Source of the DNA: Nemertoderma westbladi
Taxonomy: Eukaryota; Animalia; Xenacoelomorpha
DNA: 64,000 bases
Direction: 5' to 3'
Assembly (NCBI GenBank): GCA_032718475.1
Contig: JAUCBJ010005935.1
Location: 62,001 to 126,000, forward strand
Under the pieces are notes generated by a model. The model saw only the letters and a list, made by a program, of their open reading frames with translations. It did not search any database and was not told where the DNA came from. The position numbers were made by a program, and so were the translations under genes. Shown here in pieces: positions 1 through 27,347 of the stretch. Position 1 is the stretch's first letter, and every line of letters begins with the position of its first letter.

Positions 1-3000
1 TAATTCAACATGGAGTGAAGGTATATCACAGCAAGGGCGGGGAAGTTTTGTTGTATATGGAGTTGGTGTAGGTGTCGTGAATGTAGCTGGACATGATGTC
101 GCTTTATATGTTGTTGGACAAGATACAGGTGTCGTTGTAGTTGTTGATTCAATGCAGTCTATTATTACATTGACTGATCCATAACTATTGCAGTTATTGT
201 TTGAGAATTTAAGTTGTAAATAAAACTCTTTAGTATCAAAACAGTCAAGCTCTTTCTTCAAAATTATTATGTAGTCTTTTATTGCGAAATAATTGTTCTT
301 TGGATCAGGGTTTATGAGATAAACAGATGGCAGTTTTCCTTGAAAGACAGTTGATATGTCCAATAATGATGTTGATGGGGATGAATTTTCTGGAATATTT
401 AATTCAGCATGGAGTGAAGGTATATCACAGCATGGGCGGGGAAGTTTTGTTGTATAGGGAGTTGGTGTTGGTGTCGTGAATGTAGCTGGGCATGATGTCG
501 CTTTATATGTTGTTGGACAAGATACAGGTGTTGTTGTAGTTGTTGATTCAATGCAGTCTATTATGATGTTTATTGAACCATAACTATTGCAGACGTTGTT
601 TGAGAATTTAAGTTGTAAATAAAACTCTTTGGTATCAAAACAGTCAAGCTCTTTCTTCAAAATTATTATGTAGTCTTTTATTGCAAAATAATTGTTCTTT
701 GGATCAGGGTTTATGAGATAAACAGATGGCAGTTTTCCTTGAAAGACAGTTGATATGTCCAATAATGATGTTGATGGGGATGAATTTTCTGGAATATTTA
801 ATTCAGCATGGAGTGAAGGTATATCACAGCATGGGCGGGGAAGTTTTGTTGTATAGGGGGTTGGTGTAGGTGTCGTGAATGTAGCTGGACATGATGTCGC
901 TTTATACGTTGTTGGACAAGATACAGGTGTAGTTGTAGTTGTTGATTCAATACAGTCTATTATGACATTGACTGATCCATAACTATTGCAGTCATTGTTT
1001 GAGAATTTAAGTTGTAAATAAAACTCTTTGGTATCAAAACAGTCAAGCTCTTTCTTCAAAATGATCATGTAACCCTTTATTTCAAAATAATTGTTCTTTG
1101 GATCAGGGTTTATGAGATAAACATATGGCAGTTTCCCTTGAAAGACAGTTGAAATGTCCAATAATGATGTTGATGGGGATGAATTTTCTGGAATATTTAA
1201 TTCAACATGGAGTGAAGGTATATCACAGCATGGGCGGGGAAGTTTTGTTGTATATGGAGTTGGTGTAGGTGTCGTAAATGTAGCTGGACATGATGTCGCT
1301 TTATATGTTGTTGGACAAGATACAGGTGTAGTTGTAGTTGTTGATTCAATGCAGTCTATTATGACATTGACTGATCCATAACTATTGCAATTATTATTTG
1401 AGAATTTAAGTTGTAAATAAAACTCTTTGGTATCGAAACAGTCAAGCTCTTTCTTCAAAATTATCATGTAATCCTTTATTTCAAAATAATTGTTCTTTGG
1501 ATCAGGGTTTATGAGATAAACAGATGGCAGTTTTCCTTGAAAGACAGTTGATATGTCCAATAATGATGTTGATGGGGATGAATTTTCTGGAATATTTAAT
1601 TCAGCATGGAGTGAAGGTATATCACAGCAAGGGCGGGGAAGTTTTGTTGTATATGGAGTTGGTGTAGGTGTCGTGAATGTAGCTGGACATGATGTCGCTT
1701 TATATGTTGTTGGACAAGATACAGGTGTAGTTGTAGTTGTTGATTCAATGCAGTCTATTATGACATTGACTGATCCATAACTATTGCAGTTATTATTTGA
1801 GAATTTAAGTTGTAAATAAAACTCGTTGGTATCAAAACAGTCAAGCTCTTTCTTCAAAATTATTATGTAGTCTTTTATTGCAAAATAATTGTTCTTTGGA
1901 TCAGGGTTTATGAGATAAACAGATGGCAGTTTTCCTTGAAAGACAGTTGAAATGTCCAATAATGATGTTGTTGGGGTTGAATTTTCTGGAATATTTAATT
2001 CAACATGGAGTGAAGGTATATCACAGCATGGGCGGGGAAGTTTTGTTGTATATGGAGTTGGTGTAGGTGTCGTGAATGTAGCTGGGCATGATGTCGCTTT
2101 ATATGTTGTTGGACAAGATACAGGTGTAGTTGTAGTTGTTGTTTCAATACAGTCTATTATTACATTGACTGATCCATAACTATTGCAGTCATTGTTTGAG
2201 AATTTAAGTTGTAAATAAAACTCTTTGGTATCAAAACAGTCAAGCTCTTTCTTCAAAATTATTATGTAGTCTTTTATTGCAAAATAATTGTTCTTTGGAT
2301 CAGGGTTTATGAGATAAACAGATGGCAGTTTTCCTTGAAAGACAGTTGATATGTCCAATAATGATGTTGATGGGGATGAATTTTCTGGAATATTTAATTC
2401 AGCATGGAGTGAAGGTATATCACAACAAGGGCGGGGAAGTTTTGTTGTATATGGAGTTGGTGTAGGTGTCGTGAATGTAGCTGGACATGATGTTGCTTTA
2501 TATGTTGTTGGACAAGATACAGGTGTAGTTGTAGTTGTTGATGCAATGCAGTCTATTATGACATTGACTGATCCATAACTATTGCAGTTATTATTTGAGA
2601 ATTTAAGTTGTAAATAAAACTCTTTGGTATCGAAACAGTCAAGCTCTTTCTTTAAAATTATCATGTAATCTTTTATTTCAAAATGATTGTTCTTTGGATC
2701 AGGGTTTATGAGATAAACAGATGGCAATTTTCCTTGAAAGACAGTTGATATGTCCAATAATGATGTTGATGGGGATGAATTTCCTGGAATATTTAATTCA
2801 GCATGGAGTGAAGGTAAATCACAGCATGGGCGGGGAAGTTTTGTTGTATAGGGGGTTGGTGTTGGTGTCGTGAATGTAGCTGGGCATGATGTCGCTTTAT
2901 ATGTTGTTGGACAAGATACAGGTGTTGTTGTAGTTGTTGATTCAATGCAGTCTATTATGATGTTTATTGAACCATAACTATTGCAGACGTTGTTTGAGAA

Positions 3001-6000
3001 TTTAAGTTGTAAATAAAACTCTTTGGTATCAAAACAGTCAAGCTCTTTCTTCAAAATTATTATGTAGTCTTTTATTGCAAAATAATTGTTCTTTGGATCA
3101 GGGTTTATGAGATAAACAGATGGCAGTTTTCCTTGAAAGACAGTTGATATGTCCAATAATGATGTTGATGGGGATGAATTTTCTGGAATATTTAATTCAG
3201 CATGGAGTGAAGGTATATCACAGCATGGGCGGGGAAGTTTTGTTGTATAGGGGGTTGGTGTAGGTGTCGTGAATGTAGCTGGACATGATGTCGCTTTATA
3301 CGTTGTTGGACAAGATACAGGTGTAGTTGTAGTTGTTGATTCAATACAGTCTATTATGACATTGACTGATCCATAACTATTGCAGTCATTGTTTGAGAAT
3401 TTAAGTTGTAAATAAAACTCTTTGGTATCAAAACAGTCAAGCTCTTTCTTCAAAATGATCATGTAACCCTTTATTTCAAAATAATTGTTCTTTGGATCAG
3501 GGTTTATGAGATAAACAGATGGCAGTTTCCCTTGAAAGACAGTTGAAATGTCCAATAATGATGTTGATGGGGATGAATTTTCTGGAATATTTAATTCAAC
3601 ATGGAGTGAAGGTATATCACAGCATGGGCGGGGAAGTTTTGTTGTATATGGAGTTGGTGTAGGTGTCGTAAATGTAGCTGGACATGATGTCGCTTTATAT
3701 GTTGTTGGACAAGATACAGGTGTAGTTGTAGTTGTTGATTCAATGCAGTCTATTATGACATTGACTGATCCATAACTATTGCAATTATTATTTGAGAATT
3801 TAAGTTGTAAATAAAACTCTTTGGTATCGAAACAGTCAAGCTCTTTCTTCAAAATTATCATGTAATCCTTTATTTCAAAATAATTGTTCTTTGGATCAGG
3901 GTTTATGAGATAAACAGATGGCAGTTTTCCTTGAAAGACAGTTGATATGTCCAATAATGATGTTGATGGGGATGAATTTTCTGGAGTATTTAATTCAGCA
4001 TGGAGTGAAGGTATATCACAGCAAGGGCGGGGAAGTTTTGTTGTATATGGAGTTGGTGTAGGTGTTGTGAATGTAGCTGGACATGATGTCGCTTTATATG
4101 TTGTTGGACAAGATACAGGTGTAGTTGTAGTTGTTGATTCAATGCAGTCTATTATGACATTGACTGATCCATAACTATTGCAGTTATTATTTGAGAATTT
4201 AAGTTGTAAATAAAACTCGTTGGTATCAAAACAGTCAAGCTCTTTCTTCAAAATTATTATGTAGTCTTTTATTGCAAAATAATTGTTCTTTGGATCAGGG
4301 TTTATGAGATAAACAGATGGCAGTTTTCCTTGAAAGACAGTTGAAATGTCCAATAATGATGTTGGGGTTGAATTTTCTGGAATATTTAATTCAACATGGA
4401 GTGAAGGTATATCACAGCATGGGCGGGGAAGTTTTGTTGTATATGGAGTTGGTGTAGGTGTCGTGAATGTAGCTGGGCATGATGTCGCTTTATATGTTGT
4501 TGGACAAGATACAGGTGTAGTTGTAGTTGTTGTTTCAATACAGTCTATTATTACATTGACTGATCCATAACTATTGCAGTCATTGTTTGAGAATTTAAGT
4601 TGTAAATAAAACTCTTTGGTATCAAAACAGTCAAGCTCTTTCTTCAAAATTATTATGTAGTCTTTTATTGCAAAATAATTGTTCTTTGGATCAGGGTTTA
4701 TGAGATAAACAGATGGCAGTTTTCCTTGAAAGACAGTTGATATGTCCAATAATGATGTTGATGGGGATGAATTTTCTGGAATATTTAATTCAGCATGGAG
4801 TGAAGGTATATCACAACAAGGGCGGGGAAGTTTTGTTGTATATGGAGTTGGTGTAGGTGTCGTGAATGTAGCTGGACATGATGTTGCTTTATATGTTGTT
4901 GGACAAGATACAGGTGTAGTTGTAGTTGTTGATGCAATGCAGTCTATTATGACATTGACTGATCCATAACTATTGCAGTTATTATTTGAGAATTTAAGTT
5001 GTAAATAAAACTCTTTGGTATCGAAACAGTCAAGCTCTTTCTTTAAAATTATCATGTAATCTTTTATTTCAAAATGATTGTTCTTTGGATCAGGGTTTAT
5101 GAGATAAACAGATGGCAATTTTCCTTGAAAGACAGTTGATATGTCCAATAATGATGTTGATGGGGATGAATTTCCTGGAATATTTAATTCAGCATGGAGT
5201 GAAGGTAAATCACAGCATGGGCGGGGAAGTTTTGTTGTATAGGGGGTTGGTGTTGGTGTCGTGAATGTAGCTGGGCATGATGTCGCTTTATATGTTGTTG
5301 GACAAGATACAGGTGTTGTTGTAGTTGTTGATTCAATGCAGTCTATTATGATGTTTATTGAACCATAACTATTGCAGACCTTGTTTGAGAATTTAAGTTG
5401 TAAATAAAACTCTTTGGTATCAAAACAGTCAAGCTCTTTCTTCAAAATTATTATGTAGTCTTTTATTGCGAAATAATTGTTCTTTGGATCAGGGTTTATG
5501 AGATAAATTGATGGCAGTTTTCCTTGAAAGACAGTTGATATGTCCAATAATGATGTTGATGGGGATGAATTTTCTGGAATATTTAATTCAGCATGGAGTG
5601 AGGGTATATCACAGCATGGGCGGGGAAGTTTTGTTGTATAGGGGGTTGGTGTAGGTGTTGTGAATGTAGCTGGACATGATGTCGCTTTATACGTTGTTGG
5701 ACAAGATACAGGTGTAGTTGTAGTTGTTGATTCAATACAGTCTATTATGACATTGACTGATCCATAACTATTGCAGTTATTGTTTGAGAATTTAAGTTGT
5801 AAATAAAACTCTTTGGTATCGAAACAGTCAAGCTCTTTCTTCAAAATGATCATGTAATCCTTTATTTCAAAATAATTGTTCTTTGGATCAGGGTTTATGA
5901 GATAAACAGATGGCAGTTTTCCTTGAAAGACATTTGAAATGTCCAATAATGATGTTGTTGGGGTTGAATTTTCTGGAATATTCAATTCAACATGGAGTGA

Positions 6001-8820
6001 AGGTATATCACAGCAAGGGCGGGGAAGTTTTGTTGTATATGGAGTTGGTGTAGGTGTCGTAAATGTAGCTGGACATGATGTCGCTTTATATGTTGTTGGA
6101 CAAGATACAGGTGTAGTTATAGTTGTTGATTCAATGCAGTCTATTATGACATTGACTGATCCATAACTATTGCAGTTATTATTTGAGAATTTAAGTTGTA
6201 AATAAAACTCTTTGGTATCAAAACAGTCAAGCTCTTTCTTCAAAATGATCATGTAATCGTTTATTTCAAAATAATTATTCTTTGGATCAGGGTTTATGAG
6301 ATAAACAGATGGCAGTTTTCCTTGAAAGACAGTTGAAATGTCCAATAATGATGTTGTTGGGGTTGAATTTTCTGGAATATTTAATTCAACATGGAGTGAA
6401 GGTATATCACAGCAAGGGCGGGGAAGTTTTGTTGTATATGGAGTTGGTGTAGGTGTCGTGAATGTAGCTGGACATGATGTCGCTTTATATGTTGTTGGAC
6501 AAGATACAGGTGTAGTTGTAGTTGTTGCTTCAATACAGTCTATTATTACATTGACTGATCCATAACTATTGCAGTCATTGTTTGAGAATTTAAGTTGTAA
6601 ATAAAACTCTTTGGTATCAAAACAGTCAAGCTCTTTCTTCAAAATGATCATATAATCTTTTATTTTAAAATAATTGTTCTTTGGATCAGGGTTTATGATA
6701 TAAACAGATGGCAGTTTTCCTTGAAAGACAGTTGAAATGTCCAATAATGATGTTGTTGGGGTTGAATTTTCTGGAATATTTAATTCAACATGGAGTGAAG
6801 GTATATCACAGCAAGGGCGGGGAAGTTTTGTTGTATATGGAGTTGGTGTAGGTGTCGTGAATGTAGCTGGACATGATGTCGCTTTATATGTTGTTGGACA
6901 AGATACAGGTGTAGTTGTAGTTGTTGCTTCAATACAGTCTATTATTACATTGACTGATCCATAACTATTGCAGTCATTGTTTGAGAATTTAAGTTGTAAA
7001 TAAAACTCTTTGGTATCAAAACAGTCAAGCTCTTTCTTCAAAATTATAATGTAGTCTTTTATTGCAAAATAATTGTTCTTTGGATCAGGGTTTATGAGAT
7101 AAACAGATGGCAGTTTTCCTTGAAAGACAGTTGATATGTCCAATAATGATGTTGATGGGGATGAATTTTCTGGAATATTTAATTCAGCATGGAGTGAAGG
7201 TATATCACAACAAGGGCGGGGAAGTTTTGTTGTATACGGAGTTGGTGTAGGTGTCGTGAATGTAGCTGGACATGATGTTGCTTTATATGTTGTTGGACAA
7301 GATACAGGTGTAGTTGTAGTTGTTGATTCAATGCAGTCTATTATGACATTGACTGATCCATAACTATTGCAGTTATTATTTGAGAATTTAAGTTGTAAAT
7401 AAAACTCTTTGGTATCGAAACAGTCAAGCTCTTTCTTTAAAATTATTATGTAGTCTTTTATTGCAAAATAATTGTTCTTTGGATCAGGGTTTATGAGATG
7501 AACAGATGGCAGTTTTCCTTGAAAGACAGTTGATATGTCCAATAATGATGTTGATGGGGATGAATTTTCTGGAATATTTAATTCAGCATGGAGTGAAGGT
7601 ATATCACAACAAGGGCGGGGAAGTTTTGTTGTATATGGAGTTGGTGTAGGTGTCGTGAATGTAGCTGGACATGATGTTGCTTTATATGTTGTTGGACAAG
7701 ATACAGGTGTAGTTGTAGTTGTTGATTCAATGCAGTCTATTATGACATTGACTGATCCATAACTATTGCAGTTATTATTTGAGAATTTAAGTTGTAAATA
7801 AAACTCTTTGGTATCAAAACAGTCAAGCTCTTTTTTCAAAATTATTATGTAGTCTTTTATTGCAAAATAATTGTTCTTTGGGTCAGGGTTTATGAGATGA
7901 ACAGATGGCAGTTTTCCTTGAAAGACAGTTGATATGTCCAATAATGATGTTGATGGGGATGAATTTTCTGGAATATTTAATTCAGCATGGAGTGAAGGTA
8001 TATCACAACAAGGGCGGGGAAGTTTTGTTGTATATGGAGTTGGTGTAGGTGTCGTGAATGTAGCTGGACATGATGTTGCTTTATATGTTGTTGGACAAGA
8101 TACAGGTGTAGTTGTAGTTGTTGATTCAATGCAGTCTATTATGACATTGACTGATCCATAACTATTGCAGTTATTATTTGAGAATTTAAGTTGTAAATAA
8201 AACTCTTTGATATCAAAACAGTCAAGCTCTTTCTTCAAAATTATTATGTAGTCTTTTATTGCAAAATAATTGTTCTTTGGATCAGGGTTTATGAGATAAA
8301 CAGATGGCAGTTTTCCTTGAAAGACAGTTGATATGTCCAATAATGATGTTGATGGGGATGAATTTTCTGGAATATTTAATTCTGCATGGAGTGAAGGTAT
8401 GTCACAACAAGGGCGGGGAAGTTTTGTTGTATACGGAGTTGGTGTAGGTGTCGTGAATGTAGCTGGGCATGATGTCGCTTTATATGTTGTTGGACAAGAT
8501 ACAGGTGTTGTTGTAGTTGTTGATTCAATGCAGTCTATTACGATGTTTATTGAACCATAACTATTGCAGTTTTTGTTTGAGAATTTAAGTTGTAAATAAA
8601 ACTCCTTGGTGTCAAAACAATCTAATTCTTTCATCAAAATTAATATATAGTCATTTAGAGCAAAATAATTATTTTTTGGATCCTGATTTATAATAAATAC
8701 TGAAGGTAGTTGTCCATGAAGCATTATTGATGAATCCAATAACTGTGTTGATGGCATTGTGTTATCTGGGATAGATAAATCAGCATGGAAAGAGGGGAGG
8801 TCGCAGCAGTTTATGGGTAA
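1..8820 (-). repeat. Coding tandem array A: about 22 copies of a 399-bp (133-aa) unit, truncated by the window edge
   Basis: Marker atgtccaataatgatg recurs at 356, 755, 1154 ... 8333 (399-bp spacing, one 396-bp unit with an in-frame 3-bp deletion near 4360), with a diverged copy near 8732. Confidence 0.97.
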
Positions 8821-11800
8821 ATTTGTAGGACAAGGTGTTGGGGGAGGCATTGTTGGTAAAACCTCAAATACTGGACAAATCAATGGACAGAGAGGTTGTA
8901 ACAACATCTCAGAAATAGCTATTGGATATCGATTTGGTTGTAAAATATCAATATCATTGAGTGAATTTCGGAGCTGCACACTGCTTGCAAGTATTGGATT
9001 TGTACCATCAATGATAATTGCCATTAAAATTATTGCATATGTAGACAAAACCTCATTGCAATCAGTGTCATAATGTTGTTTAATTGCATATATAGATGTC
9101 CGAAATGAATTGGGAGTTTCTGCATTAAGCTCTGCCAAGAAGTCTCGTTCCTTGGAAGCAATAACAGATGGGTCTTCTTCTTTTGTAAGCAATATTAATT
9201 GGTAATCTTCATTAGTTACACAAATATCAATATTAACACTATTGCTTTCAGATGTCCCAATATCTGTTGCTCTAGCAACACATTGAAAACATTCACCTTT
9301 TAGTGCTGTAATATAATCTGATGTTCGTAGTATACCAGTTGTTCTGTCAATAGTAAATGACAAACATTTGTTAGAACTAACTAGACTATATTCTGTTCTT
9401 CCATTTCCAACAGTGTCTTTATCACTTGTGGTGAGTGTAGCAATGAAGCTGTGTGGAGCTACACAAGCATCTAAAATGAATTGATATTCGTTATCAAATT
9501 GTGGAGGATTGTCATTTGTATCCAGAATTGAAACATCAATAACAGCTATAGCCTCGCATAATGCTCCAATCAAATTAACTTTAACTATATGCCTGTCATT
9601 GATTTCAAAATCGGAATTAACAATATCAACTGCCTTGTTTCTAACTAGAAAGTTGTTTAAGTCACTTCCACTGCTGACGCTACCAATACTAATACTCTGT
9701 AAAGACCCCAAATTGATATAATCATGGAGTTCCACAAATTGTGTATTTTCTGTTATCTCCACAGCATTATATAAGCCATAACACCAGTCTGGTAGCTGGG
9801 ACGAGCATCTACTGGCACATCTTATGGCATCGTAGTGATCGATATAATTCAAACCATTACTTAGAAGTTCTGCAGTTACATCAGTAAGATCACTACTTAT
9901 TAATGTATATATCTGGTTGGTATTCATGAGTTTGTATTCATCATTAGTAGAAAAGTCACTTAAACGCACTGCAGTGAATTCAACTGTTGTTTCAGCTGTT
10001 TTAAGGACGCAATTCTTATCATACCGCGCATGTGCATTATTTACAATAATATGATTTTGTTTTAAATTTAATGTGTTTGAAAGTATTTGTTTCACTTGTT
10101 CAATCGACTTTTCAACCTCATTCAGTGGATTATTGAAGTGGATGGCAGCTAAATTAGAAGCAGTTTGAACACAAAGATTAGCATTTGTGCGCTTGCTATG
10201 CTCACCTTGATCTACAACTTGTGGTATACATAATTTGCATGCTCCTATTTCACTTTCAACAGGCTCTCTCTCAAGACGAACCATACCTGTTTTATCATTA
10301 ACAGAAAATGGTGCACAATTTGTTAAACTGTATGTGAGTTCATCTAAAGGGTCTGCATCTTGGGCGATAAGTTTAACTACTTCAGTCCCCAATTTATCAC
10401 ATTCATTAGCTACACCAAAAAAGGTATTTTCAGTGAACCGTGGAAATTCATCATTTATGTTTTGTACATTGATAGTCACTGTAGCAAAACGTACACAATG
10501 TTGCAATAAAACTTTGACGCTGAGAATGTATTTAGTTGAACCTTCATCATAGTTAAGTGCAGAAATTGTTACTATTTTATTTGGATTTTCTACACCAAAT
10601 AGACCTTGAATGTCCCCTTTAACAATTTCAATTTCAGTTACACCATCAACATTTATAATCCCAACTTCAGCACCAGCAATATTTTCATCTACCTTGAATT
10701 CTTCATAAATTGCATCTGAAAAGATACATGATACCATTGGAGTTGTAGTAGGGCACTGTATTGGTTCAGCTGTTGTAGTAATTTCAATACAATCAATATT
10801 TATGTTTAATGACCCATAACTGTTACAGTTGTTATTGAACAATTTAAGTTGTAAATAAAACTCTTTGGTATCGAAACAGTCAAGCTCTTTCATCAACAGA
10901 ATCTTATAGTCTTTTACAGTGAAATAATTGTTCTTTGGATCTGGATTTATCAGATAAACAGATGGCAGTTTTCCTTGAAAGACTGCTGATATGTCTAATA
11001 ATGATGTTGATATTGGTGAATTTTCTGGAATAGTCAATTCAGCATGGAGTGAAGGTATATCACAGCATGGACGGGGAAGTTTTGTTGTATATGGGGTTGG
11101 TGTAGGTGTCGTGAGTGTAGCTGGGCATGATGTCGCTTTATATGTAGTTGGACAAGATACAGGAGTAGTTGTAGTTGTTGATTCAATGCAGTCTATTATG
11201 ACATTTACTGAACCATAACTATTGCAATTATTATCTGAGAATTTAAGTTGTAAATAAAACTCTTTGGTATCGAAACAGTCAAGCTCTTTCATCAACAGTA
11301 TCTTATAGTCTTTTACAGCGAAATAATTTTTCTTTGGATCTGGATTTATCAGATATACAGATGGGACTTTTCCTTGAAAGACTGCTGATATGTCCAATAA
11401 TGATGTTGATATTGGTGAATTATCTGGAATAGATAATTCAACATGGAGTGACGGTATATCACAGCAAGGGCGGGGAAGTTTAGTTGTATATGGGGTTGGT
11501 GTATGTGTCGTGAATGTAGCTGGGCATGATGTTGCTTTATATGTTGTTGGACAAGATACAGGAGTTGTTGTAGTTGTTGATTCAATGCAGTCTATTATGA
11601 CATTTACTGAACCATAACTTTTACAGTTGTTGTTAGAAAACTTAAGTTGTAAATAAAACTCTTTGGTATCGAAACAGTCAAGCTCATTCATCAACAGTAT
11701 CTTATAGTCTTTTACAGCGAAATAATTGTTCTTTGGATCTGGATTTATCAGATAAACAGATGGGAGTTTTCCTTGAAAAATTGCTGATATGTCCAATAAT

Positions 11801-14800
11801 GATGTTGATATTGGTGAATTATCTGGAATAGATAATTCAACATGGAGTGAAGGTATATCACAGCATGGGTGGGGAAGTTTAGTTGTATATGGGGTTGGTG
11901 TAGGTGTCGTGAATGTAGCTGGGCATGATGTTGCTTTATATGTTGTTGGACAAGATACAGGAGTAGTTGTAGTTGTTGATTCAATGCAGTCTATTATGAC
12001 ATTTACTGAACCATAACTTTTACAGTTGTTGTTAGAAAATTTAAGTTGCAAATAAAACTCTTTGGTATCGAAACAGTCAAGCTCTTTCATCAACAGTATC
12101 TTATAGTCTTTTACAGCGAAGTAATTGTTCTTTGGATCTGGATTTATCAGATAAACAGATGGGAGTTTTCCTTGAAAGACTGCTGATATGTCCAATAATG
12201 ACGTTGATATTGGTGAATTATCTGGAATAGATAATTCTGCATGTAGTGAAGGTATATCACAGCATGGGTGGGGAAGTTTTGTTGTATAGGGAGTTGGAGT
12301 AGGTGTTGTTAAAGTAGCAGGACATGTTGTTGCTTTATAAGTAGTTGGACAAGGTACAGGAGTAGTTGTAGTTGTTGATTCAATGCAGTCTATTATGATA
12401 TTTACTGAACCATAACTTTTACAGTTGTTGTTAGAAAACTTAAGTTGCAAATAAAACTCTTTGGTATCGAAACAGTCAAGCTCTTTCATCAACAGTATCT
12501 TATAGTCTTTTACAGCGAAATAATTGTTCTTTGGATCTGGATTTATCATATAAACAGATGGCCATTTTCCTTGAAAGACAGTAGATATGTCCAATAATGA
12601 TGTTGATGGGGATGAATTTTCTGGAATATTTAATTCAGCATGGAGTGAAGGTATATCACAGCAAGGGCGGGGAAGTTTTGTTGTATAGGGAGTTGGAGTA
12701 GGTGTTGTTAAAGTAGCAGGACATGTTGTTGCTTTATAAGTAGTTGGACAAGATACAGGAGTAGCTGTAGTTGTTGATTCAATGCAGTCTATTATGAAAT
12801 TTATTGAACCATATCTTTTACAGTTGTTGTTAGAAAACTTAAGTTGCAAATAAAACTCCTTGGTATCGAAACAGTCAAGCTCTTTCATCAACAGTATCTT
12901 ATAGTCTTTTACAGCGAAATAATTGTTCTTTGGATCTGGATTTATCAGATAAACAGATGGGAGTTTTCCTTGAAAGACTGCTGATATGTCCAATAATGAT
13001 GTTGATATTGGTGAATTATCTGGAATAGATAATTCTGCATGTAGTGAAGGTATATCACAGCATGGGCGGGGAAGTTTTGTTGTACAAGGTGTTGGAGTAG
13101 GTGTTGTTAAAATAGCTGGGCATGATGTCGCTTTATATGTTGTTGGACAAGATACCGGAATAGTTGTAGTTGTGGATTCAATGCAGTCTATTATGACATT
13201 TACTGAACCATAACTTCTACAGTTGTTGTTAGAAAACTTAAGTTGCAAATAAAACTCTTTGGTATCGAAACAGTCAAGCTCTTTCATCAACAGTATCTTA
13301 TAGTCTTTTACAACGAAATAATTGTTCTTTGGATCTGGATTTATCAGATAAACAGATGGCCATTTTCCTTGAAAGACTGCTGATATGTCCAATAATGATG
13401 TTGATATTGGTGAATTATCTGGAATAGATAATTCTGCATGTAGTGAAGGTATATCACAGCATGGGCGGGGAAGTTTTGTTGTATAGGGAGTTGGAGTAGG
13501 TGTTGTTAAAGTAGCAGGACATGTTGTTGCTTTATAAGTAGTTGGACAAGATACAGGAGTAGCTGTAGTTGTTGATTCAATGCAGTCTATTATGACATTT
13601 ATTGAACCATATCTTTTACAGTTGTTGTTAGAAAACTTAAGTTGCAAATAAAACTCCTTGGTATCGAAACAGTCAAGCTCTTTCATCAACAGTATCTTAT
13701 AGTCTTTTACAGCGAAATAATTGTTCTTTGGATCTGGATTTATCAGATAAACAGATGGGAGTTTTCCTTGAAAGACTGCTGATATGTCCAATAATGATGT
13801 TGATATTGGTGAATTATCTGGAATAGATAATTCTGCATGTAGTGAAGGTATATCACAGCATGGGCGGGGAAGTTTTGTTGTACAAGGTGTTGGAGTAGGT
13901 GTTGTTAAAATAGCTGGGCATGATGTCGCTTTATATGTTGTTGGACAAGATACCGGAGTAGTTGTAGTTGTGGATTCAATGCAGTCTATTATGACATTTA
14001 CTGATCCATAACTATTACAGTTGTTGTTGGAGAATTTAAGTTGTAAATAGAACTCTTTGGTATCAAAACAGTCAAGCTCTTTCTTCAAAATTATTATGTA
14101 GTCTTTTATAGCAAAATAATTGTTCTTTGGATCAGGGTTTATGAGATAAACAGATGGCAGTTTTCCTTGAAATACTGCTGATATGTCCAATAATGATGTT
14201 GATGTTAGTGAATTATCTGGAATAGATAATTCAGCATGTAGTGAAGGTATATCACAGCATGGGCGGGGAAGTTTTGTTGTACAAGGTGTTGGAGTAGGTG
14301 TTGTTAAAATAGCTGGGCATGATGTCGCTTTATATGTTGTTGGACAAGATACCGGAGTAGTTGTAGTTGTTGATTCAATGCAGTCTATTATGACATTTAC
14401 TGAACCATAACTTCTACAGTTGTTGTTAGAAAACTTAAGTTGCAAATAAAACTCTTTGGTATCGAAACAGTCAAGCTCTTTCATCAACAGTATCTTATAG
14501 TCGTTTACAACGAAATAATTGTTCTTTGGATCTGGATTTATCAGATAAACAGATGGGAGTTTTCCTTGAAAGACTGCTGATATGTCCAATAATGATGTTG
14601 ATATTGGTGAATTATCTGGAATAGATAATTCTGCATGTAGTGAAGGTATATCACAGCATGGGCGGGGAAGTTTTGTTGTATAGGGAGTTGGAGTAGGTGT
14701 TGTTAAAGTAGCAGGACATGTTGTTGCTTTATAAGTAGTTGGACAAGATACAGGAGTAGTTGTAGTTGTTGATTCAATGCAGTCTACAATGATATTTACT

Positions 14801-17800
14801 GAACCATAACTTTTACAGTTGTTGTTAGAAAACTTAAGTTGCAAATAAAACTCTTTGGTATCGAAACAGTCAAGCTCTTTCATCAATAGTATCTTATAGT
14901 CTTTTACAGCGAAATAATTGTTCTTTGGATCAGGGATTATGAGATAAACAGATGGCAGTTTTCCTTGAAATATTGCTGATATATCCAATAATGATGTTGA
15001 TATTTGTGAATTATCTGGAATAGATAATTCAGTATGTAGTGAAGGTATATCACAGCATGGGCGGGGAAGTTTTGTTGTACAAGGTGTTGGAGTAGGTGTT
15101 GTTAAAATAGCTGGGCATGATGTCGCTTTATATGTTGTTGGACAAGATACCGGAGTAGTTGTAGTTGTGGATTCAATGCAGTCTATTATGATATTTACTG
15201 ATCCATAACTATTACAGTTGTTGTTGGAGAATTTAAATTGTAAATAGAACTCTTTGGTATCAAAACAGTCAAGCTCTTTCTTCAAAATTATCATATAATC
15301 TTTTAAAGCAAAATAATTGTTCTTTGGATCTGGATTTATGAGATAAACAGATGGCAGTTCTCCTTGAAATATTGCCGATATATCCAATAATGATGTTGAT
15401 ATTGGTGAATTATCTGGAATAGATAATTCAGCATGTAGTGAAGGAATATCACAGCATGGGCGGGGAAGTTTTGTTGTACAAGGTGTTGGAGTAGGTGTTG
15501 TTAAAATAGCTGGGCATGATGTCGCTTTATATGTTGTTGGACAAGATACCGGAGTAGTTGTAGTTGTGGATTCAATGCAGTCTATTATGATATTTACTGA
15601 TCCATAACTATTACAGTTGTTGTTGGAGAATTTAAATTGTAAATAGAACTCTTTGGTATCAAAACAGTCAAGCTCTTTCTTCAAAATTATCATATAATCT
15701 TTTAAAGCAAAATAATTGTTCTTTGGATCTGGATTTATGAGATAAACAGATGGCAGTTCTCCTTGAAATATTGCCGATATATCCAATAATGATGTTGATA
15801 TTGGTGAATTATCTGGAATAGATAATTCAGCATGTAGTGAAGGAATATCACAGCAAGGGCGGGGAAGTTTTGTTGTACAAGGTGTTGGAGTAGGTGTTGT
15901 TAAAATAGCTGGGCATGATGTCGCTTTATATGTTGTTGGACAAGATACCGGAGTAGTTGTAGTTGTGGATTCAATGCAGTCTATTATGATATTTACTGAT
16001 CCATAACTATTACAGTTGTTGTTGGAGAATTTAAATTGTAAATAGAACTCTTTGGTATCAAAACAGTCAAGCTCTTTCTTCAAAATTATCATATAATCTT
16101 TTAAAGCAAAATAATTGTTCTTTGGATCTGGATTTATGAGATAAACAGATGGCAGTTCTCCTTGAAATATTGCCGATATATCCAATAATGATGTTGATAT
16201 TGGTGAATTATCTGGAATAGATAATTCAGCATGTAGTGAAGGTATATCACAGCATGGGCGGGGAAGTTTTGTTGTACAAGGTGTTGGAGTAGGTGTTGTT
16301 AAAATAGCTGGGCATGATGTCGCTTTATATGTTGTTGGACAAGATACCGGAGTAGTTGTAGTTGTGGATTCAATGCAGTCTATTATGATATTTACTGATC
16401 CATAACTATTACAGTTGTTGTTGGAGAATTTAAATTGTAAATAGAACTCTTTGGTATCAAAACAGTCAAGCTCTTTCTTCAAAATTATCATATAATCTTT
16501 TAAAGCAAAATAATTGTTCTTTGGATCTGGATTTATGAGATAAACAGATGGCAGTTCTCCTTGAAATATTGCCGATATATCCAATAATGATGTTGATATT
16601 GGTGAATTATCTGGAATAGATAATTCAGCATGTAGTGAAGGAATATCACAGCAAGGGCGGGGAAGTTTTGTTGTATATGGGGTTGGTGTAGGTGTCGTGA
16701 ATGTAGCTGGGCATGATGTCGCTTTATATGTTGTTGGACAAGATACTGGAGTTGTTGTAGTTGTTGATTCAATGCAGTCTATTATGACATTTACTGATCC
16801 ATAACTATTGCAGTTATTATTTGAGAATTTAAGTTGTAAATAGAACTCTTTGGTATCGAAACAGTCAAGCTCTTTCTTCAAAATTATCATATAATCTTTT
16901 ATAGCAATATAATTGTTCTTTGGATCAGGGTTTATGAGATAAACAGATGGCAGTTTTCCTTGAAATACTGCTGATATGTCCAATAATGATGTTGATGTTA
17001 GTGAATTATCTGGAATAGATAATTCAGCATGTAGTGAAGGTATATCACAGCAAGGGCGGGGAAGTATTGTTGTACAAGGTGTTGGAGTAGGTGTTGTTAA
17101 AATAGCTGGGCATGATGTCGCTTGATATGTAGTTGGACAAGATACAGGTGTTGTGGTAGTTGTTGATTCAATGCAGTCTATTATGATATTGACAGAACCG
17201 TAACTATTGCAGTTATTGTTTGAGAATTTAAGTTGTAAATAAAATTCTTTGGTATCGAAACAGTCAAGCTCTTTCTTCAGAATTATTATGTAGTCTTTTA
17301 TAGCAAAATAATTATTCCTTGGATCAGGGTTTATGAGATAAACAGATGGCAGTTTTCCTTGAAATACTGCTGATATGTCCAATAATGATGTTGATATTGG
17401 TGAATTATCTGGAATAGATAATTCAGCATGTAGTGAAGGTATATCACAGCAAGGGCGGGGAAGTTTTGTTGCACAAGGTGTTGGAGTAGGTGTTGTTAAA
17501 ATAGCTGGGCATGATGTTGCTTTATAGGTAGTTGGACAAGATACAGGTGTTGTGGTAGTTGTTGATTCAATGCAGTCTATTATGACATTTACTGATCCAT
17601 AACTATTACAGTTGTTGTTGGAAAATTTAAGTTGTAAATAAAACTCTTTGGTATCGAAACAGTCAAGCTCTTTCTTCAAAATTATCATATAATCTTTTAT
17701 AGCAAAATAATTGTTCTTTGGATCTGGATTTATGAGATAAACAGATGGCAGTTCTCCTTGAAATATTGCCGATATATCCAATAATGATGTTGATATTGGT

Positions 17801-18753
17801 GAATTATCTGGAATAGATAATTCAACATGGAGTGAAGGTATATCACAGCATGGGCGGGGAAGTTTTGTTGTATATGGTGTTGGTGTAGGTGTTGTGAATG
17901 TAGCTGGGCATGATGTCGCTTTATATGTTGTTGGACAAGATACTGGAGTTGTTGTAGTTGTTGATTCAATGCAGTCTATTATGACATTGACTGATCCATA
18001 ACTATTGCAGTCATTGTTTGAGAATTTAAGTTGTAAATAAAACTCTTTGGTATCAAAACAGTCAAGCTCTTTCTTCAAAATTATCATGTAATCTTTTATT
18101 TCAAAATAATTGTTCTTTGGATCAGGGTTTATGAGATAAACAGATGGCAGTTTTCCTTGAAGTACTTCCGATATGTCCAATAATGATGTCGATATTGGTG
18201 AAGTATCTGGAATTTTTAATTCAACATGTAGTGAAGGTATATCACAGCATGGGCGGGGGAGTTTAGTTGTATATGGGGTTGGTGTAGGTGTTGTGATAGT
18301 AGCAGGACATGATGTCGCTTTATATGTAGTTGGACACGACACTGGCATATGTGTTGTTGTAATTTCTTTTCCGCATTCAACGTTGATCTTCATGGAGCCA
18401 TGCTGGAGGCAATTTCCATTTTTAAATGACAGTTGAAGATATATGTCATTAATGTCATGGCAATCGAGTTCTCTTACTAAGATTAATCTATTGAATTGTA
18501 TTTCAAAATACTTATGTTTAGGGTCTCTGTTTGTTATTTCTACACTGACTTCTGATTCTGGGAAATAGTCACCAAAATCCACAATTGTGGATAGGCCATA
18601 GCTATCAGGCACAGTGACTTCTGCGTTCAGTGTGGGGATGTGGCAACAGATAGGTGGTTGTGAAGTTGGGCATGGTGTAGGTACAATCACTGTCCCAGGT
18701 GCTTTGATATTCACTACCATAAACCCACTGCTTGGTGGTTCTAACGACTCTGC
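1..18753 (-). CDS. Giant coding exon 17 of a PCDH15/CDHR5-like mucin-cadherin; two arrays of 133-aa repeats around a unique cadherin/SEA-like core; open past the left window edge
   Basis: Acceptor tttag|GCA at 18753, starting AESLEPPSSGFMVVNIKAPG. The same minus frame reads open at 18753, across 8700-10860 (translated fully) and at position 1. An in-frame ATG near 18720 produces no ORF in the track, consistent with no stop inside the window. Cadherin motifs include NINDEFPRF, AQDAD and DTNDNPPQF. Confidence 0.9.
10745..18660 (-). repeat. Coding tandem array B: about 20 copies of the 399-bp (133-aa) unit
   Basis: Marker at 10991, 11390 ... 18173 with 399-bp spacing, plus a diverged founder-like copy at about 18360-18660 (CCHIPTLNAEVTVPDS...RELDCHD). 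Confidence 0.97.
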
Positions 18754-20276: not shown

Positions 20277-20374
20277 CTTCACTGTTATAGCAACATCGCT
20301 GACCAACGCTTCATTTAGAGTTATCTGTCCATTGTCTTTATTAATTTGTATCCCCGTGGTAGCAGTTGGAAATA
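20277..20374 (-). CDS. Cadherin exon 16
   Basis: ttatag|TA...FPTATTGIQINKDNGQITLNEALVSDVAITVK|gttggt; phases 1/0 match the neighbouring exons. Confidence 0.85.
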
Positions 20375-20626
20375 CTATAATATTAACAAATACCTTAATA
20401 AAAAAGACCTGTCAAAATTCAGAAAGAATCTAAAAAAACAATAAATATATAAATCCAGAATACTTTCTTTGACATAGTTAAAAATTAATTGAAGGTTAAT
20501 ATTATGTTAGACACTGATATGAATCAATATTTGGCATAATTGACCAACAGATGAACCAGAGAATATCTTGTATACACAAACAATAACTAATCAATCGCGC
20601 AGTAACCTTCACTACTTCACTCTCAC

Positions 20627-20769
20627 CCGAAGCAATGGAATAGGTGACTCCAGTTCCAGTAGCTTTGATCTCAGTAACTGTGTCACCCGTCGTTAAACTT
20701 TTGTAAGTATCAATGTTTGCCGGCAATATCAACGTCTCATCATATATTGCTTCATAGGTTACAGCGCAC
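20627..20769 (-). CDS. Cadherin exon 15
   Basis: ctag|G CAVTYEAIYDETLILPANIDTYKSLTTGDTVTEIKATGTGVTYSIAS g|gtgag; phases 2/1. Confidence 0.85.
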
Positions 20770-21704
20770 CTAGAATGTATAAGAATCAGTTTTATTTATC
20801 CCTTACATGGATACCTGAATATTCCAGGAACTCATATACACTTAAAATATAATTTGTAAAATTGTCAAGAAAAAATTTAACAAGATACCTTTTTATACTC
20901 TTAATGTAGTTATGTAAGCTATGTACGCAGTACAAGAGACACATCCATGGGATGCTAAATATAGACAGAACCGCGTTATTAGTGTTATTTTTCGACCCAA
21001 AATATTTTTTAATAAAGTGGTAAGTATATAGTATAGCAAGCTCTGAAAAAATTGAAGCTAATTCGTCCAGAGAGTTCTCGAGGTATAATCGATCAAAGTT
21101 TACATATTTGCCAACAAAAAAACTGGGCTGGGGTGATTTAAGAAATTGGGACAAATAAGCTGGTTGCTCTCAAAGGAAAGAAAGAAATCGAGAAATATGA
21201 ATAATCAGCAGGATTTTGACCGCTGCTACTTTTTTCACCAGAATAATGTTGAACTAGATATGAAATCCGATTTCAAGCTCAATTTCAAGTTCCTGCTGGG
21301 CAACCAAAACAGGTGATATAGACTCAACTGTAGGCTGTATCCCATGTCGGTCTGCTTGTAAAACCAGAATTATAACTAAAAACTTGGATTCCCCTGGCAG
21401 GTCGTAATGTGAATTAATCATTGGATATCCTTGTTGCTCATGTAGCTTTACTACCTAGAATCTTCGATTCAGGGATCTGCTGAAGACCTCCCCAAATTCG
21501 AAAGGGTAAGGCATGTTCTACATTAGATAATCTAATAAATTGGAACGTAATGCTGTAAATTTTTATTATTTGCCATTATTTTACATCATTAAATAATCTA
21601 TCAATGATTTAGAAATCACAGGCAGTAACACTTCCTCTGATGGTGAAATTATTAAGGGAAGCATTAAATCCAGTGCTGCATTACTGTAAATTTTAAACAC
21701 TTAC

Positions 21705-21808
21705 CTAAGCAAACCAGTTGGACAGGTTCCGAATTGGAGAGACAAAGTTTCACCTGGTTCTCGAATGTTAATTGTAACAGAGGTTGTAGCACTATTACCA
21801 AAGGAATC
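21705..21808 (-). CDS. Cadherin exon 14
   Basis: cacag|DSFGNSATTSVTINIREPGETLSLQFGTCPTGLL ag|gtaag; phases 0/2. Confidence 0.87.
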
Positions 21809-21972
21809 CTGTGATAATATATTTATGTTTGGTTTAATATTCATGTTTATATTCGGTTAACTAATTAATATGTATAAAATGTTACAATAGTGATAATAAT
21901 AATAATAATTATATAAACACATTAACACTAAAATAATTAATAATTAGTTCTTTAATACTATGAATATCTAAC

Positions 21973-22042
21973 CTGAGCTATGACTTGCAGAACCCTTTGA
22001 CCCGGTGAGGTAAACATCTCTGAGGAACGAATGATTCCCGTT
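21973..22042 (-). CDS. Cadherin exon 13
   Basis: ttcag|A TGIIRSSEMFTSPGQRVLQVIAQ|gttag; phases 2/0. Confidence 0.85.
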
Positions 22043-22360
22043 CTGAAATACAGTATGAATTAGACAATTCAATGGCACTAACACTACATATAACACTACT
22101 GCATGTATAAAATAAACTATTATGTGAAGAAACCTTTGCACCGTAGCGGGAAGAGTGGTAGATCTATACTGGCGAATAGTCGCTTCTATAAATCAACCAC
22201 TCATTTTTAAATTAACTATATTGACGCTAATATACTAAACTTAGCTTTATGTGATGGACATAGAATAAAGATAAATAGATAAATAAATAGATGGTAATGA
22301 TAGGCATAGGCACTACAGTATGACCACAGGTCCAGTAATATCACTTGCAACATGACTTAC

Positions 22361-22552
22361 TCTTGGTCGATTACAAAACCAGTCGCGCTTCCCGCACCGA
22401 GGCTATATGTAACATCGGCCCCAGGTTCAACTGTAACGACAGTAGCTATGGTTTCTGATGGTTCACCAGTTGCTATGGTAACGGGTAATGTTCCTTGTAT
22501 AACAGAGAATGTTGGTGTGTAGGCATTTACAGTGACAACAGCAAAAGATTGA
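22361..22552 (-). CDS. Cadherin exon 12
   Basis: ttcag|T QSFAVVTVNAYTPTFSV...ADVTYSLGAGSATGFVIDQ ga|gtaag; phases 2/2. Confidence 0.88.
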
Positions 22553-22904
22553 CTGAAAGATAGAAAACATATCATTCAATACACGAAGCTACCTTCGACA
22601 TTGATATCGAGAATGGCAACGACTCCTACAACTATATGTCCTGCAACAAAGCCCATCCTAAGCCAGTTAAAAATTAAAAGTATTAGAATTAAACATTATC
22701 ATTATTTTAATATCTAAAAGACATTAAAAATAAAAAATAAGGACAGAATTTTGTAATTATAAATAAAATAAAGATCAGCTTCTGAAGAATTTCATTAAAA
22801 TCATCCTATAGAATGAGTCAAAGGGGGGTAGGCCTCTATCTCGATTAGTGCTGCATGAGTAGCATAATTATTATTTTACTATTAAAATATCAGCCGTCAC
22901 TCAC

Positions 22905-23110
22905 CTTGGTACCACAGAACCAGTTTCTTCTGCTCTAACCAGTAATACATACTGACTCCCAGACTGTATTGCTGAGGCTTTCATTCCCTCTGTCGTTATA
23001 GAAACCTGACCTGATCCGTCGACTTCAAACAAAGTTGCACCGTTGTTGGACACAAATGGAAGGCTGTATGCGATTGGGTTGGTCTTCGTATCTTCATCGC
23101 TAGCAGAGAC
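22905..23110 (-). CDS. Cadherin exon 11
   Basis: cacag|VSASDEDTKTNPIAYSL...LFEVDGSGQVSI...YVLLVRAEETGSVVP ag|gtgag; contains the AxDxD motif; phases 0/2. Confidence 0.92.
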
Positions 23111-23174
23111 CTGTGAAAAACGATAAAGCAGATAATGCATGCATTATATGCTGATCCGATGTGCTTATCAGATA

Positions 23175-23325
23175 TGCGCCTTTCATCCACTGGGGTCGAT
23201 AAAATGAGTACCAGTTAAATAACTGGGAGCAAATCTTGGGATAGGAGTAGCGCCCACCCCTACCCTCGGGTAGCAGCTATCGAAAGAGGAGCCTTCGGGT
23301 CGCCTCCGGCTTCGGCCGACTGTTT
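23175..23325 (+). mobile_element. Probable SINE fragment
   Basis: gcctttcatccactggggtcgataaaatgagtaccag resembles, from memory, the conserved central domain of MetaSINE-type SINEs; GC-rich island within a short intron. Confidence 0.4.
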
Positions 23326-23536
23326 GCTTTTGCTTGTTTGCTATGCTTAGGAATGCATGCATATAGGACCGACCTCTGAAAGTAAAGAGCAAGGAGGTAC
23401 TGTACCATCATTATTAAGATTATTTAATACTGCAGCATCAAACCACACATTAAGGAAAATCAAATCTATTGTTACTATAAATTTTGCAGCAACTAATCTC
23501 TCAGTCAATATTACCCTGTTGTATAAGGTGACTCAC

Positions 23537-23698
23537 CTTCACTACTCCGTTCTGATTGGGTACACCGTTTGTAGTCAGGATTATTGCAGCGGTATATTGG
23601 CTGTCTGGCACGAACTTTGGAGGCGTCTCATTAATGTCTGTTACTGTAACTGCCACTTGAGTTGACTCACTTCTACCCTGGTCATCAGTGACTGTCAC
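23537..23698 (-). CDS. Cadherin exon 10
   Basis: ttag|VTVTDDQGRSESTQVAVTVTDINETPPKF...GVVK|gtgag; DINE-PP-F linker motif; phases 0/0. Confidence 0.92.
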
Positions 23699-24280
23699 CT
23701 AAACAAGTACCATATGATAGATGCAGTAGTTGGTAGATTGGGGGTTGCCCTGGCCTGGGGATATAGGTTGATTGCATGGATACTAATGGAGTGCAGTAGA
23801 TTGGCCGTGTGGAGCCCTGCAGTTAGTCGCTTATTGCTATTGGTTGCATTCCCAATCATATACTACTATTGTGCTAACAAGTTGTAACATTATTGTTTCA
23901 TATTTTATGTGTATTTACCTAATTATCAGGTTGTAGGGAGTTCGGCTGGTAGTAGTAACGGGCATATAGGGGCTCTACATAGTGGTTTGCGGGTAACTCT
24001 GTCAGAGGTGGAAGGAAGTGGTATGTTGTATTGTTTTCATCATTTTTATGCATTTTATTGTTAGAGACAGAACCAAAAATACTATTGTCTCATTTTTAAC
24101 AACTGAACTACACAGTGATAGGGGCGGACAATCACATAGAGCACGGAATCAATGCTGTGCTAATGTTTATAGATTGATGAAACCAAAAAAAATCTTGCAC
24201 TCTCAAACCCTAAGATTGGGAAAATTGATCAGATAGGGAGTAACAAGTGGCCGCGGCCGGTAATATTCATATTATAACTA

Positions 24281-24792
24281 ATTGTGGGGCGAGCCACGAA
24301 GTTGGCGGAGCCTTAGCGAATTGACACTGTTAGGGGGTGGGTCAATTTATGCAAATAGTTGTCGTCGTCGTCGTCGTCGTCGTTGTCGTCGTCGTCGTTG
24401 TCGTCGTCGTTACGATTTTGACATGCTAATAACTTTGTCGGATTTAAAGCTGCCAAGTTGAAAATTTGTAGGTATCAATATGAGCAAAAGTTGAGATTTT
24501 TGAGAGACTTTCAGACACCATCAGTGCAATGGTCTCCCGCTAGAGGGCCACATGTCTAAACATTAAATGCCCTCCCATTTCTTTGCTTTTAATCCGTTTA
24601 AGCTGAAACTTGGCAGATATGTATTAGACCATTAGCTGTGACTTTCAAAGGAGGCGAATCCATCTGCAGTTCTCCAGTCTGCCGCTAGAGGGCCAACGTG
24701 ACTATTTGCATAAATTGACCTACCCCCTAACAGTGTCAATTCGCTAAGGCTCTGCCAACTTCGTGCTGCGCGAAGTCCCCACTTCGTGTACT
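24281..24792. mobile_element. Non-autonomous Helentron/DINE-like element with (GTC)n and internal inverted repeat
   Basis: Near-identical in reverse complement to 41975-42458; inverted repeat 24297-24358 vs 24703-24764; microsatellite at 24361-24410; terminal motif shared with 41450 and 61025. Confidence 0.65.
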
Positions 24793-25469
24793 GTTATATA
24801 TAATATATATATAATTATGAGATGAGTTTTTTTTGAGGAATAGATAATTGGATTTATAAATGTTTACTAAAATATTGTTTCTTAAATTCAATCACACTAA
24901 ATGAGCTATTCAACGAAAGATAGATGTAGCCAGTTAAAATCAGTACTCCGGTATCAAGGCCAATGCCATGACCGATATTATCTAGCACATGGGCGTGAAG
25001 AATACCAGGATTTCACTTTTCGGTCGACTTTTTATTGGAATTTTATATATTAAGAAGTTTTATTTTTTTAATTTATCTTTTATTAAGTGTTTTATAGCGC
25101 TTATTTCTGTCTTATATATAACCTATACTAATTTGTTTATTGTTTTTGTTAGATTCAGCCCTTCTTGTATCCTGTGTTTTTGGTTAAAACATGGTATTCT
25201 TCACAATGGCCATGGGGGTAACGGCAAAGTGAAATATAACGGCAGAAAGTCTGGTATTTTTCATATGGGCCGTTTACACACCGTTGTTTGCGGTTGTTTG
25301 ATCACCTTGATCGATTTAAGGGGAAAGGGAAACTAACTTTATTTTTCAATATTTGTATTAATAAATGAATACGCCTTGAAGTCGGCATGTTGTTGGCTGT
25401 TATATATTATTCTTGAGATTTGCAGGACTTTTACTTAACTCTATATTAAATTATTATAAAATCATTTAC

Positions 25470-25607
25470 CTGAATATTGAATGGATCGGGGGACGTCTCC
25501 TTATCTAGACTTCCCGAGAGGCTAAGAAGCACAGCTCCATTAACTTCAGTAGCAGTGAATGGAGCGGTGCTTGGTGACACTGAGTATGTCCTATTAGGAA
25601 CCTCGCC
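25470..25607 (-). CDS. Cadherin exon 9
   Basis: tatag|GEVPNRTYSVSPSTAPFTATEVNGAVLLSLSGSLDKETSPDPFNIQ|gtaaat; LDKE motif; phases 0/0. Confidence 0.9.
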
Positions 25608-26548: not shown

Positions 26549-26679
26549 CTAAAATATATACAAAAAATAATTTTACAAACAGCTCGGAAATGGTGATGTA
26601 TAGAAATGTAACTTTCCTATTCATTTAATATACTTGGCAGCGTGTATCTTCAGTAACAGCGGTGTATCATGCTCGACAC

Positions 26680-27204: not shown

Positions 27205-27347
27205 CTGTGACAATAAATAAACGGTGAACGGTAGGAATTGCTATACCGGTATACAAATTATTGATCGGAATATTAACCTGTTACAGCGATTAGTGTAGGC
27301 CTATATAATATGTTAAACATTTATAATAATTTGTTTATGATACTTAC

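Follow-up and report, generated by a model that had tools for sequence, protein, structure and literature searches.

The cadherins closest in features to the gene reported here are CDHR5, with four cadherin (EC) repeats and one mucin-like domain (PMC8691648; 10.64898/2026.05.11.724279), and PCDH15, with 11 EC repeats and one MAD (10.1101/460097; PMC8691648). Cr-3 cadherins have EC1 cysteines on strands A and F and lack Trp2 (PMC8691648), the MAD of PCDH15 brings about cis-dimerisation and has low mechanical strength (10.1101/460097), a MAD/SEA domain can act as a proteolytic switch (PMC6586460), and CDH23 has 27 cadherin repeats, as the name MAD28 implies (10.1101/460097). Very large exons are described from human genes, with internal exons of >21 kb in MUC16 (exon 3) and >17 kb in titin (PMC3467050) and exons of 14.9 kb in the reference MUC12 and 10.9 kb in MUC5B (PMC3467050; PMC13345508); MUC12 alleles encode up to 23,080 residues (PMC13345508). 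The PIGSFEAST exon of Drosophila Dumpy holds ~40 near-identical 102-residue units in one exon, with concerted evolution by unequal crossing-over (PMC2930355). Here we describe a gene on the minus strand of a 64,000-nucleotide stretch of the Nemertoderma westbladi genome (assembly GCA_032718475.1, contig JAUCBJ010005935.1, positions 62,001 to 126,000; hereafter the window, in whose positions all coordinates are given). Positions 1–18753 form one open frame that is real, under selection and very likely translated. The reading that we favour, and regard as rather probable, is that this frame belongs to a secreted-pathway cadherin gene as one translated exon, which expanded by unequal crossing-over and encodes a beads-on-a-string tether of calcium-free cadherin domains joined by Thr/Pro linkers. 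The frame is organized as follows.

1–18753, minus strand: giant open frame, modelled exon 17, at least 18,753 bp (6,251 codons), with its 3' end beyond the window.
18649–18753, minus strand: start of exon 17, which probably completes the seventh N-terminal cadherin-like repeat (final strands) before a short Thr/Pro/Cys linker (from the translation).
10768–18648, minus strand: array 1, 399-bp units with 20 cadherin-fold domains in all (from the unit map).
8809–10737, minus strand: unique block of ~640 codons, two modules each of two cadherin domains and a ~105–110-residue alpha/beta-type domain (from PF00028, PDB cadherins and the module alignment).
1–8808, minus strand: array 2, with 22 cadherin-fold domains in full and a 23rd cut by the window edge (from the unit map).

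Translation of the reverse complement of 1–18753 gives 0 stops in 6,251 codons, and the remaining five frames contain 278–529 stops each. The proposal of a preliminary description, made from the letters alone, that one minus-strand frame holds throughout is therefore borne out, and the in-frame stop looked for as a refuting sign is absent. That description had also called the frame invisible to the open reading frame track. The default listing is indeed empty (0 frames), but only because the frame runs off the window edge; an open-ended listing contains one, at 1..18720, of 6,240 residues. Thr, Ser and Pro together make up 31% of the giant frame. The 638 codons of the unique block contain no stop, against a mean of 47.9 in 2,000 shuffles, and the openness of the frame is therefore not due to chance.

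Upstream, the frame is closed by a TAG whose AG is the splice acceptor at 18755–18754, preceded by a long T/A-rich tract. Scored with matrices built from the gene's own 16 modelled donors and acceptors, it ranks top of the 16 modelled acceptors (17.6 bits, leave-one-out). The boundary is also present, with 0–1 differences, on long contigs of X1–X3, three genomic-looking sequencing runs from at most two samples, one of which may be the source of the assembly; these contigs stop where array 1 begins. Donor-like sites inside both arrays reach at most 4.2 bits, against a leave-one-out median of 9.2 (range 1.4–11.7) for the modelled donors. Five donor-like sites of 7.7–10.1 bits, all in the unique block (10692, 10286, 10281, 10205 and 9296), and acceptor-like sites of ~9.2–12.4 bits, just below the modelled median, in most array units, plus one at 9305, would allow a coding region that is not one constitutive exon, in which cryptic donors of the unique block combine with acceptor-like sites of the units to give isoforms of different length. 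We hold this to be decidedly unlikely, in view of the lack of a good donor in the arrays, the uniform purifying selection on domain and linker described below, and the finding that across 18.7 kb only one donor and three acceptors reach the medians of the modelled sites. To judge from these scores, a single exon is the simplest reading of 1–18753, and we adopt it with high confidence; minor internal splicing is conceivable.

Selection was assessed in the 39 full units that start with CCDxP, a set that leaves out the divergent first unit, a 132-residue unit and two incomplete ones. The mean synonymous divergence (dS) among them is 0.32 and the mean nonsynonymous divergence (dN) 0.055, for a dN/dS of 0.17 (0.18 in the folded domain and 0.11 in the linker), far from the value near 1 that had been named as evidence against selection. 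Within the 35 distinct units, variation affects 70 of 261 zero-fold sites but 44 of 62 four-fold sites; the corresponding counts are 56 of 185 and 26 of 31 in the domain, and 14 of 76 and 18 of 31 in the linker. The 202 derived alleles include no stop, although stops would result from 65 of the 1,197 possible single changes (nominal P ~1e-5, such figures being indicative only, as the units share ancestry and are not independent). These three results uphold the earlier suggestion that the frame is kept by selection on translation. A non-coding satellite or recent pseudogene, its frame open by inheritance from one stop-free unit, could imitate an open array if a unit divisible by three had been freshly amplified; the units, though, are diverged to the extent given by dS, have accumulated no stops or frameshifts at a dN/dS of 0.17, and are accompanied by 638 unique open codons that encode cadherin domains. 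Short of a very recent loss of function this explanation is refuted, and we give it almost no weight.

The run search listed no RNA-labelled run with the sequence. A fourth run, X4, holds 0.53 of 232 sampled words from 8700–10900, which spans the unique block, and one of its contigs (234 bases) joins modelled exons 10 and 11 exactly, allowing a 2-base overlap.

23110–23537, minus strand: boundaries of intron 10, present in spliced form in one X4 contig (contig match with a 2-base overlap).

Over the stretch examined, which is mostly intronic, 22 of 30 bins are without X4 depth. It does not cover exons 12–16 or the start of exon 17, which contig data cannot make evidence of absence. The junction contig and the share of words lead us to take X4 as RNA-derived and to infer transcription of the gene and of the middle of the giant frame.

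The unit map has 43 unit starts. The interval from one start to the next is 399 bp in 40 cases and 396 bp in one; of the remaining two units, one continues into the unique block and the other, at the end, is truncated by the window edge after 11 codons. The 396-bp interval reflects a 3-bp deletion in the unit at 4419, previously reported as the only indel among about 42 units; the deletion stands, but it is not alone, because the first unit (18648), the most divergent of array 1, has a one-residue gap within its domain, though its total is still 133 residues. The 133-residue unit comprises a 95-residue predicted cadherin fold (71%) and a 38-residue Thr/Pro linker (66% Thr, Ser or Pro in the unit examined). 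Units group by array, with 2 label changes against ~14 for shuffled labels, and the units at the array edges form the longest branches and are the most divergent. Four adjacent units at 16653–15058 are near-identical (0–2 base differences), and array 2 contains a six-unit higher-order duplication (5616–3226 against 3225–832, with 8 mismatches in 2,391 bp and the 3-bp gap). This combination of clustering by array, divergent edges, near-identical neighbours and a six-unit duplication fits unequal crossing-over with local homogenisation of the 399-bp unit, which is likely the process that shaped the arrays. The duplicated 399 bp had no intron, which suffices to explain why coding turns intron-free so abruptly. 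The near-identical neighbours and the repeated six-unit block might instead mean that assembly has inflated or collapsed the number of units, so that the true exon length differs, and the X1–X3 short-read contigs do stop where the array begins. We consider this very unlikely, since 35 of the 39 units are distinct at the mean dS given above; without the near-identical copies (~9–11 units) the exon would still exceed 14 kb, so that an error of this kind touches its length and not the finding.

For structure prediction of the unit, domains from the window itself were aligned in 16 rows, with ECb, ECd and exon 4 dropped as misaligned, and the resulting model of the 95-residue domain has a predicted local distance difference test (pLDDT) score of 84.1. 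Its best Foldseek match is PCDH15 EC4–7 (E 9.9e-7, template modelling score 0.72), and the best 50 rows listed by VIA-align are all cadherins (top Z 12.5, root mean square deviation 2.3 over 95 residues). A profile of 7 ordinary cadherin sequences scores the 42 units at a mean of 8.5 bits; 1 in 1,000 shuffles reaches the units' median, and reversed units score at most 2.0. The model and these scores predict a seven-strand EC fold for the unit. The calcium-linker motifs are lost in it, DRE (LDRE) having become LDC and DxNDN having become IDC, and a DxND motif is present in none of the units. All 39 units keep the same seven cysteines, while silent changes occur in five of the corresponding codons. 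Presumably, cadherin topology places C64 and C93 together at the base of the domain and C1/2 and C81 at its top, an arrangement from which it is likely that disulfides (C1/2–C81 at the top, C64–C93 at the base) replace calcium as the stabiliser. An eighth cysteine, resulting from a change of Tyr to Cys at unit position 126, is found in 9 of the 39 units, all in array 1 (16653–12266).

The full units contain seven cysteines (32 of 41) or eight (9 of 41), and the odd number in most of them, together with the invariance of all seven, gives some room to a different product of the same translated exon, one that is secreted and forms a gel or fibre, with the seventh cysteine of each unit bonding between chains. 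The mucin-type gene structure suits such a product, as does the lack of a transmembrane segment in the part of exon 17 within the window, where the best 19-residue hydropathy is 2.0. The odd cysteine could, however, bond to a neighbouring unit of the same chain, the N-terminal tip is of a PCDH15/CDHR5 type that points to a membrane cadherin, and Pfam found no vWD, CysD or CTCK match, nor one to the SEA and EGF domains of tethered mucins, in the 16 segments scanned, the C-terminus lying outside them. We regard cross-linking between chains as possible but doubtful. An unlikely, broader form of the idea is a cadherin turned mucus or matrix polymer, in which calcium-free, disulfide-capped domains on an O-glycosylated chain would be cross-linked by the odd cysteines and released under force at internal SEA/MAD-like domains, encoded by a length-polymorphic exon possibly longer than the biggest human reference exons. 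The C-terminus of the protein, and with it any membrane anchor, would be encoded beyond the window.

The unique block has a Pfam match to PF00028 (E 4.3e-15), it matches cadherins in the PDB, and its two modules align with each other at 23% identity over 128 residues (E 3e-8). The first domain of each module has the strand-A and FG-loop cysteines of the unit and a short FG loop; these common features point to a domain of this kind as the ancestor of the unit.

~10737–10450, 10446–10159, 9798–9511 and 9507–9214, minus strand: cadherin domains of the unique block (from Pfam and PDB).
9823–10158, minus strand: likely SEA/MAD-like domain 1 (from its place behind a cadherin domain, as for domain 2).
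8905–9213, minus strand: likely SEA/MAD-like domain 2 (from an Atlas feature search, as a lead only).

The two ~110-residue domains are likely SEA/MAD-like, that is of the ferredoxin-like MAD/SEA type, by their position and by the Atlas look-alikes of domain 2 taken with the preceding cadherin domain, namely FAT3 (0.91), a DE-cadherin-like cluster (0.89), dystroglycan (0.85), and sarcoglycan and PCDH15 (both 0.82); the query contained a cadherin domain, so these look-alikes are a lead only. PDB sequence searches with the two domains returned one chance match each (E 0.24 and 0.3), which were rejected, as was a Pfam match to 'Resistin' (E 0.001, below the cut-off) that falls on a Cys/Thr linker.

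Upstream of the giant frame, the gene was modelled with 16 small exons joined by GT-AG introns, for a total of 17 exons open for 7,091 residues. The order in the model is a signal peptide, ~7 ordinary cadherin repeats, array 1 (20 domains), the unique block and array 2 (22 domains).

56218–56293, minus strand: modelled exon 1, with the ATG and a signal-peptide-like leader (hydrophobic, read by eye from the translation).
42559–42749, minus strand: modelled exon 2, EC1 with the strand-A cysteine C30 (from the model and motifs).
40742–40861, minus strand: modelled exon 3, EC1 with the DRE motif and the strand-F cysteine C121 (from the model and motifs).
20277–29102, minus strand: modelled exons 4–16, of 324, 139, 180, 158, 219, 138, 162, 206, 192, 70, 104, 143 and 98 bp, EC2–EC7 (all introns GT-AG).

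The size of 70–324 bp given earlier for the other exons matches modelled internal exons 2–16. Exon 4 matches PF00028 (E 3.5e-12), and our own cadherin profile matches five repeats, at residues 148–265, 377–424, 429–542, 561–647 and 683–741; EC1 was recognised by motifs, and the seventh repeat, which runs from exons 15–16 into the giant exon, was assigned by eye. Calcium-linker motifs (DxNDN, DRE, DxD) lie at residues 140, 259, 326, 383, 3605 and 3918. By position in the spliced model, C30 of EC1 is four residues past the likely signal cleavage site and C121 ten past the DRE motif, and there is no Trp2. On the evidence of PF00028 above the cut-off in exon 4 and the unique block, the calcium-linker motifs and the PDB cadherin matches, the gene is a member of the cadherin superfamily. 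A candidate exon near 24000 was dropped from the model, exon 9 joining exon 10 in frame without it.

Besides the internal splice-like sites, the shared ancestry of the units and the missing transmembrane segment mentioned above, several observations weigh against the reading of a single translated exon for a cadherin tether. (i) The unit is not recognised by Pfam, its Atlas feature score of only 0.88 is a low recognition, and hhalign of the unit against cadherin profiles gave <4% probability, with shallow profiles. (ii) SEA/MAD-like domain 1 has no Pfam or PDB sequence match and domain 2 no PDB sequence match, and a single-sequence fold of 1,019 residues had a pLDDT of 31 and gave no usable model of either. 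(iii) X4 is labelled 'DNA?', and its RNA nature is deduced from a single junction contig with a depth of 8.6. (iv) Glycosylation, disulfides, location and partner are predictions only.

Searches for relatives gave little. The 886-residue middle region retrieved 2 generic cadherins among 7,995 candidates, with 27–31% local identity, and two units searched against longer proteins (467–2,000 residues) had no relative among 7,974 candidates, which is weak evidence of absence. The sole match (P0003) of SEA/MAD-like domain 2 plus one unit against 1.84 billion representatives was rejected as a 24-residue match to an unrelated repeat. No comparable cadherin was found in the literature searched, which omits most subscription journals and supplements.

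For the tether that we favour, the following origin and function may be proposed. The unit would have arisen from one cadherin domain, of a type that appears still to be present twice in the unique block; this ancestral domain would already have lain inside an intron-free exon, and each duplication would have added coding length without introns. The Thr/Pro linkers are predicted to be O-glycosylated, which would leave the chain flexible and protease-resistant. Partner binding would fall to the calcium-binding N-terminal repeats with their PCDH15/CDHR5-type tip, which the arrays would keep far from the anchor, and the two SEA/MAD-like domains could serve as points of dimerisation, stretch or shedding. 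At 4.5 nm per domain and 0.25 nm per linker residue, the part in the window would measure very roughly 0.6 micrometre, and the whole may be longer. The most likely job would be that of a spacer-tether at an apical surface such as microvilli, cilia, a cuticle or a mucus coat. In this role the tether would be the counterpart of the mucin-like domain in CDHR5 and of the PIGSFEAST exon in Dumpy.

The introns contain other elements. Intron 3 (29150–40800, minus strand, 11.6 kb) consists mostly of a 53-bp minisatellite copied from the exon 3/intron 3 boundary; among the 184 copies found, GT at the donor position is kept in 81 and CAG|GT in 19. This array matches the 'mirage' repeats described in amphioxus but is far longer than the 3–6 units given for BflGb6 (PMC3087553). 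It is interrupted at 29550–31277 by an insertion with a 172-codon frame and a Tf2-type SH3 domain (PF24626, E 8.3e-7, just under the cut-off), likely the 3' remnant of a long terminal repeat retrotransposon. Antisense within modelled intron 1, an intronless frame of ~1,070 residues (52247–55468, plus strand) encodes a nardilysin-like M16 peptidase with an intact HFLEH motif and at most 38% identity to annotated nardilysins, amphioxus being top; it is possibly a retrogene. It is flanked by two 21-bp arrays, one of ~75 tandem copies at 43752–45597 and a short related one in the opposite orientation, 10 kb away, at 55865–55971. A 48-bp tandem array of ~65 copies (45710–48848, 89–92% matches) has two plus-strand open frames of ~530 codons and is probably non-coding. 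Very high-copy dispersed elements, with a depth in X1–X3 thousands of times that of single-copy sequence, occupy 23180–23330 in intron 10 and 24290–24700 in intron 9, and a related-looking element that carries an ACG microsatellite is present in inverted orientation at ~41800–42460 (by eye).

This gene is unusual in its build, in that its cadherin-type domains are mostly near-identical, calcium-free and cysteine-closed and alternate with mucin-like linkers, and in its growth within a single exon, without duplication of exons. The number of domains exceeds that of CDH23 and that of FAT, which has 34 cadherin domains. The gene could serve as a test case for cadherin folding without calcium, for cadherin-to-mucin transitions, as CDHR5 taken to an extreme, and for the concerted evolution of folded domains; with no relative of the unit found, genes of such build would be missed by protein databases.

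Compared with the cadherins, it shares with CDHR5 and PCDH15 a signal peptide, EC1 cysteines on strands A and F (C30 and C121) and the lack of Trp2, with CDHR5 the combination of cadherin repeats and a Thr/Pro-rich part, and with PCDH15 that of cadherin repeats and a MAD, which is here a candidate. It differs from both in its ~53 cadherin-type domains in the window, 42 of them calcium-free and alternating with the Thr/Pro linkers, and in the mid-chain position of its two likely MAD/SEA-like domains; the likeness meant here is one of features. A ~110-residue non-cadherin domain directly after a cadherin repeat is also found in CDH23, CDHR2, FAT, CELSR and dystroglycan (10.1101/460097; PMC6586460), but in these it follows the last EC repeat, whereas the candidate fold here is in mid-chain with at least 22 cadherin domains after it. 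With human mucins and titin the gene shares one very large, repeat-rich coding exon of similar size class among small exons. The likeness to mucins drawn in the preliminary description thus holds for the gene, where many small exons precede a giant repeat exon, and fails for the protein, in which 95 of the 133 residues of each unit are predicted cadherin fold; there is no continuous tract rich in Pro, Thr and Ser, and only the 38-residue linker resembles one. The Dumpy exon is alike in packing ~40 units, there of ~100 residues, into one large exon, with many further exons in the gene and a giant extracellular protein as its product. The exon described here has two arrays and is larger by unit count times unit length (42 x 399 bp against ~40 x 306 bp), and the 102-residue unit of Dumpy, an EGF/DPY/ZP protein, is not described as a cadherin fold. 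The size of the exon has precedent, and the architecture of the protein is without a detected relative; the protein is a cadherin and not a mucin, and its gene has grown in the manner of the mucin and Dumpy exons.

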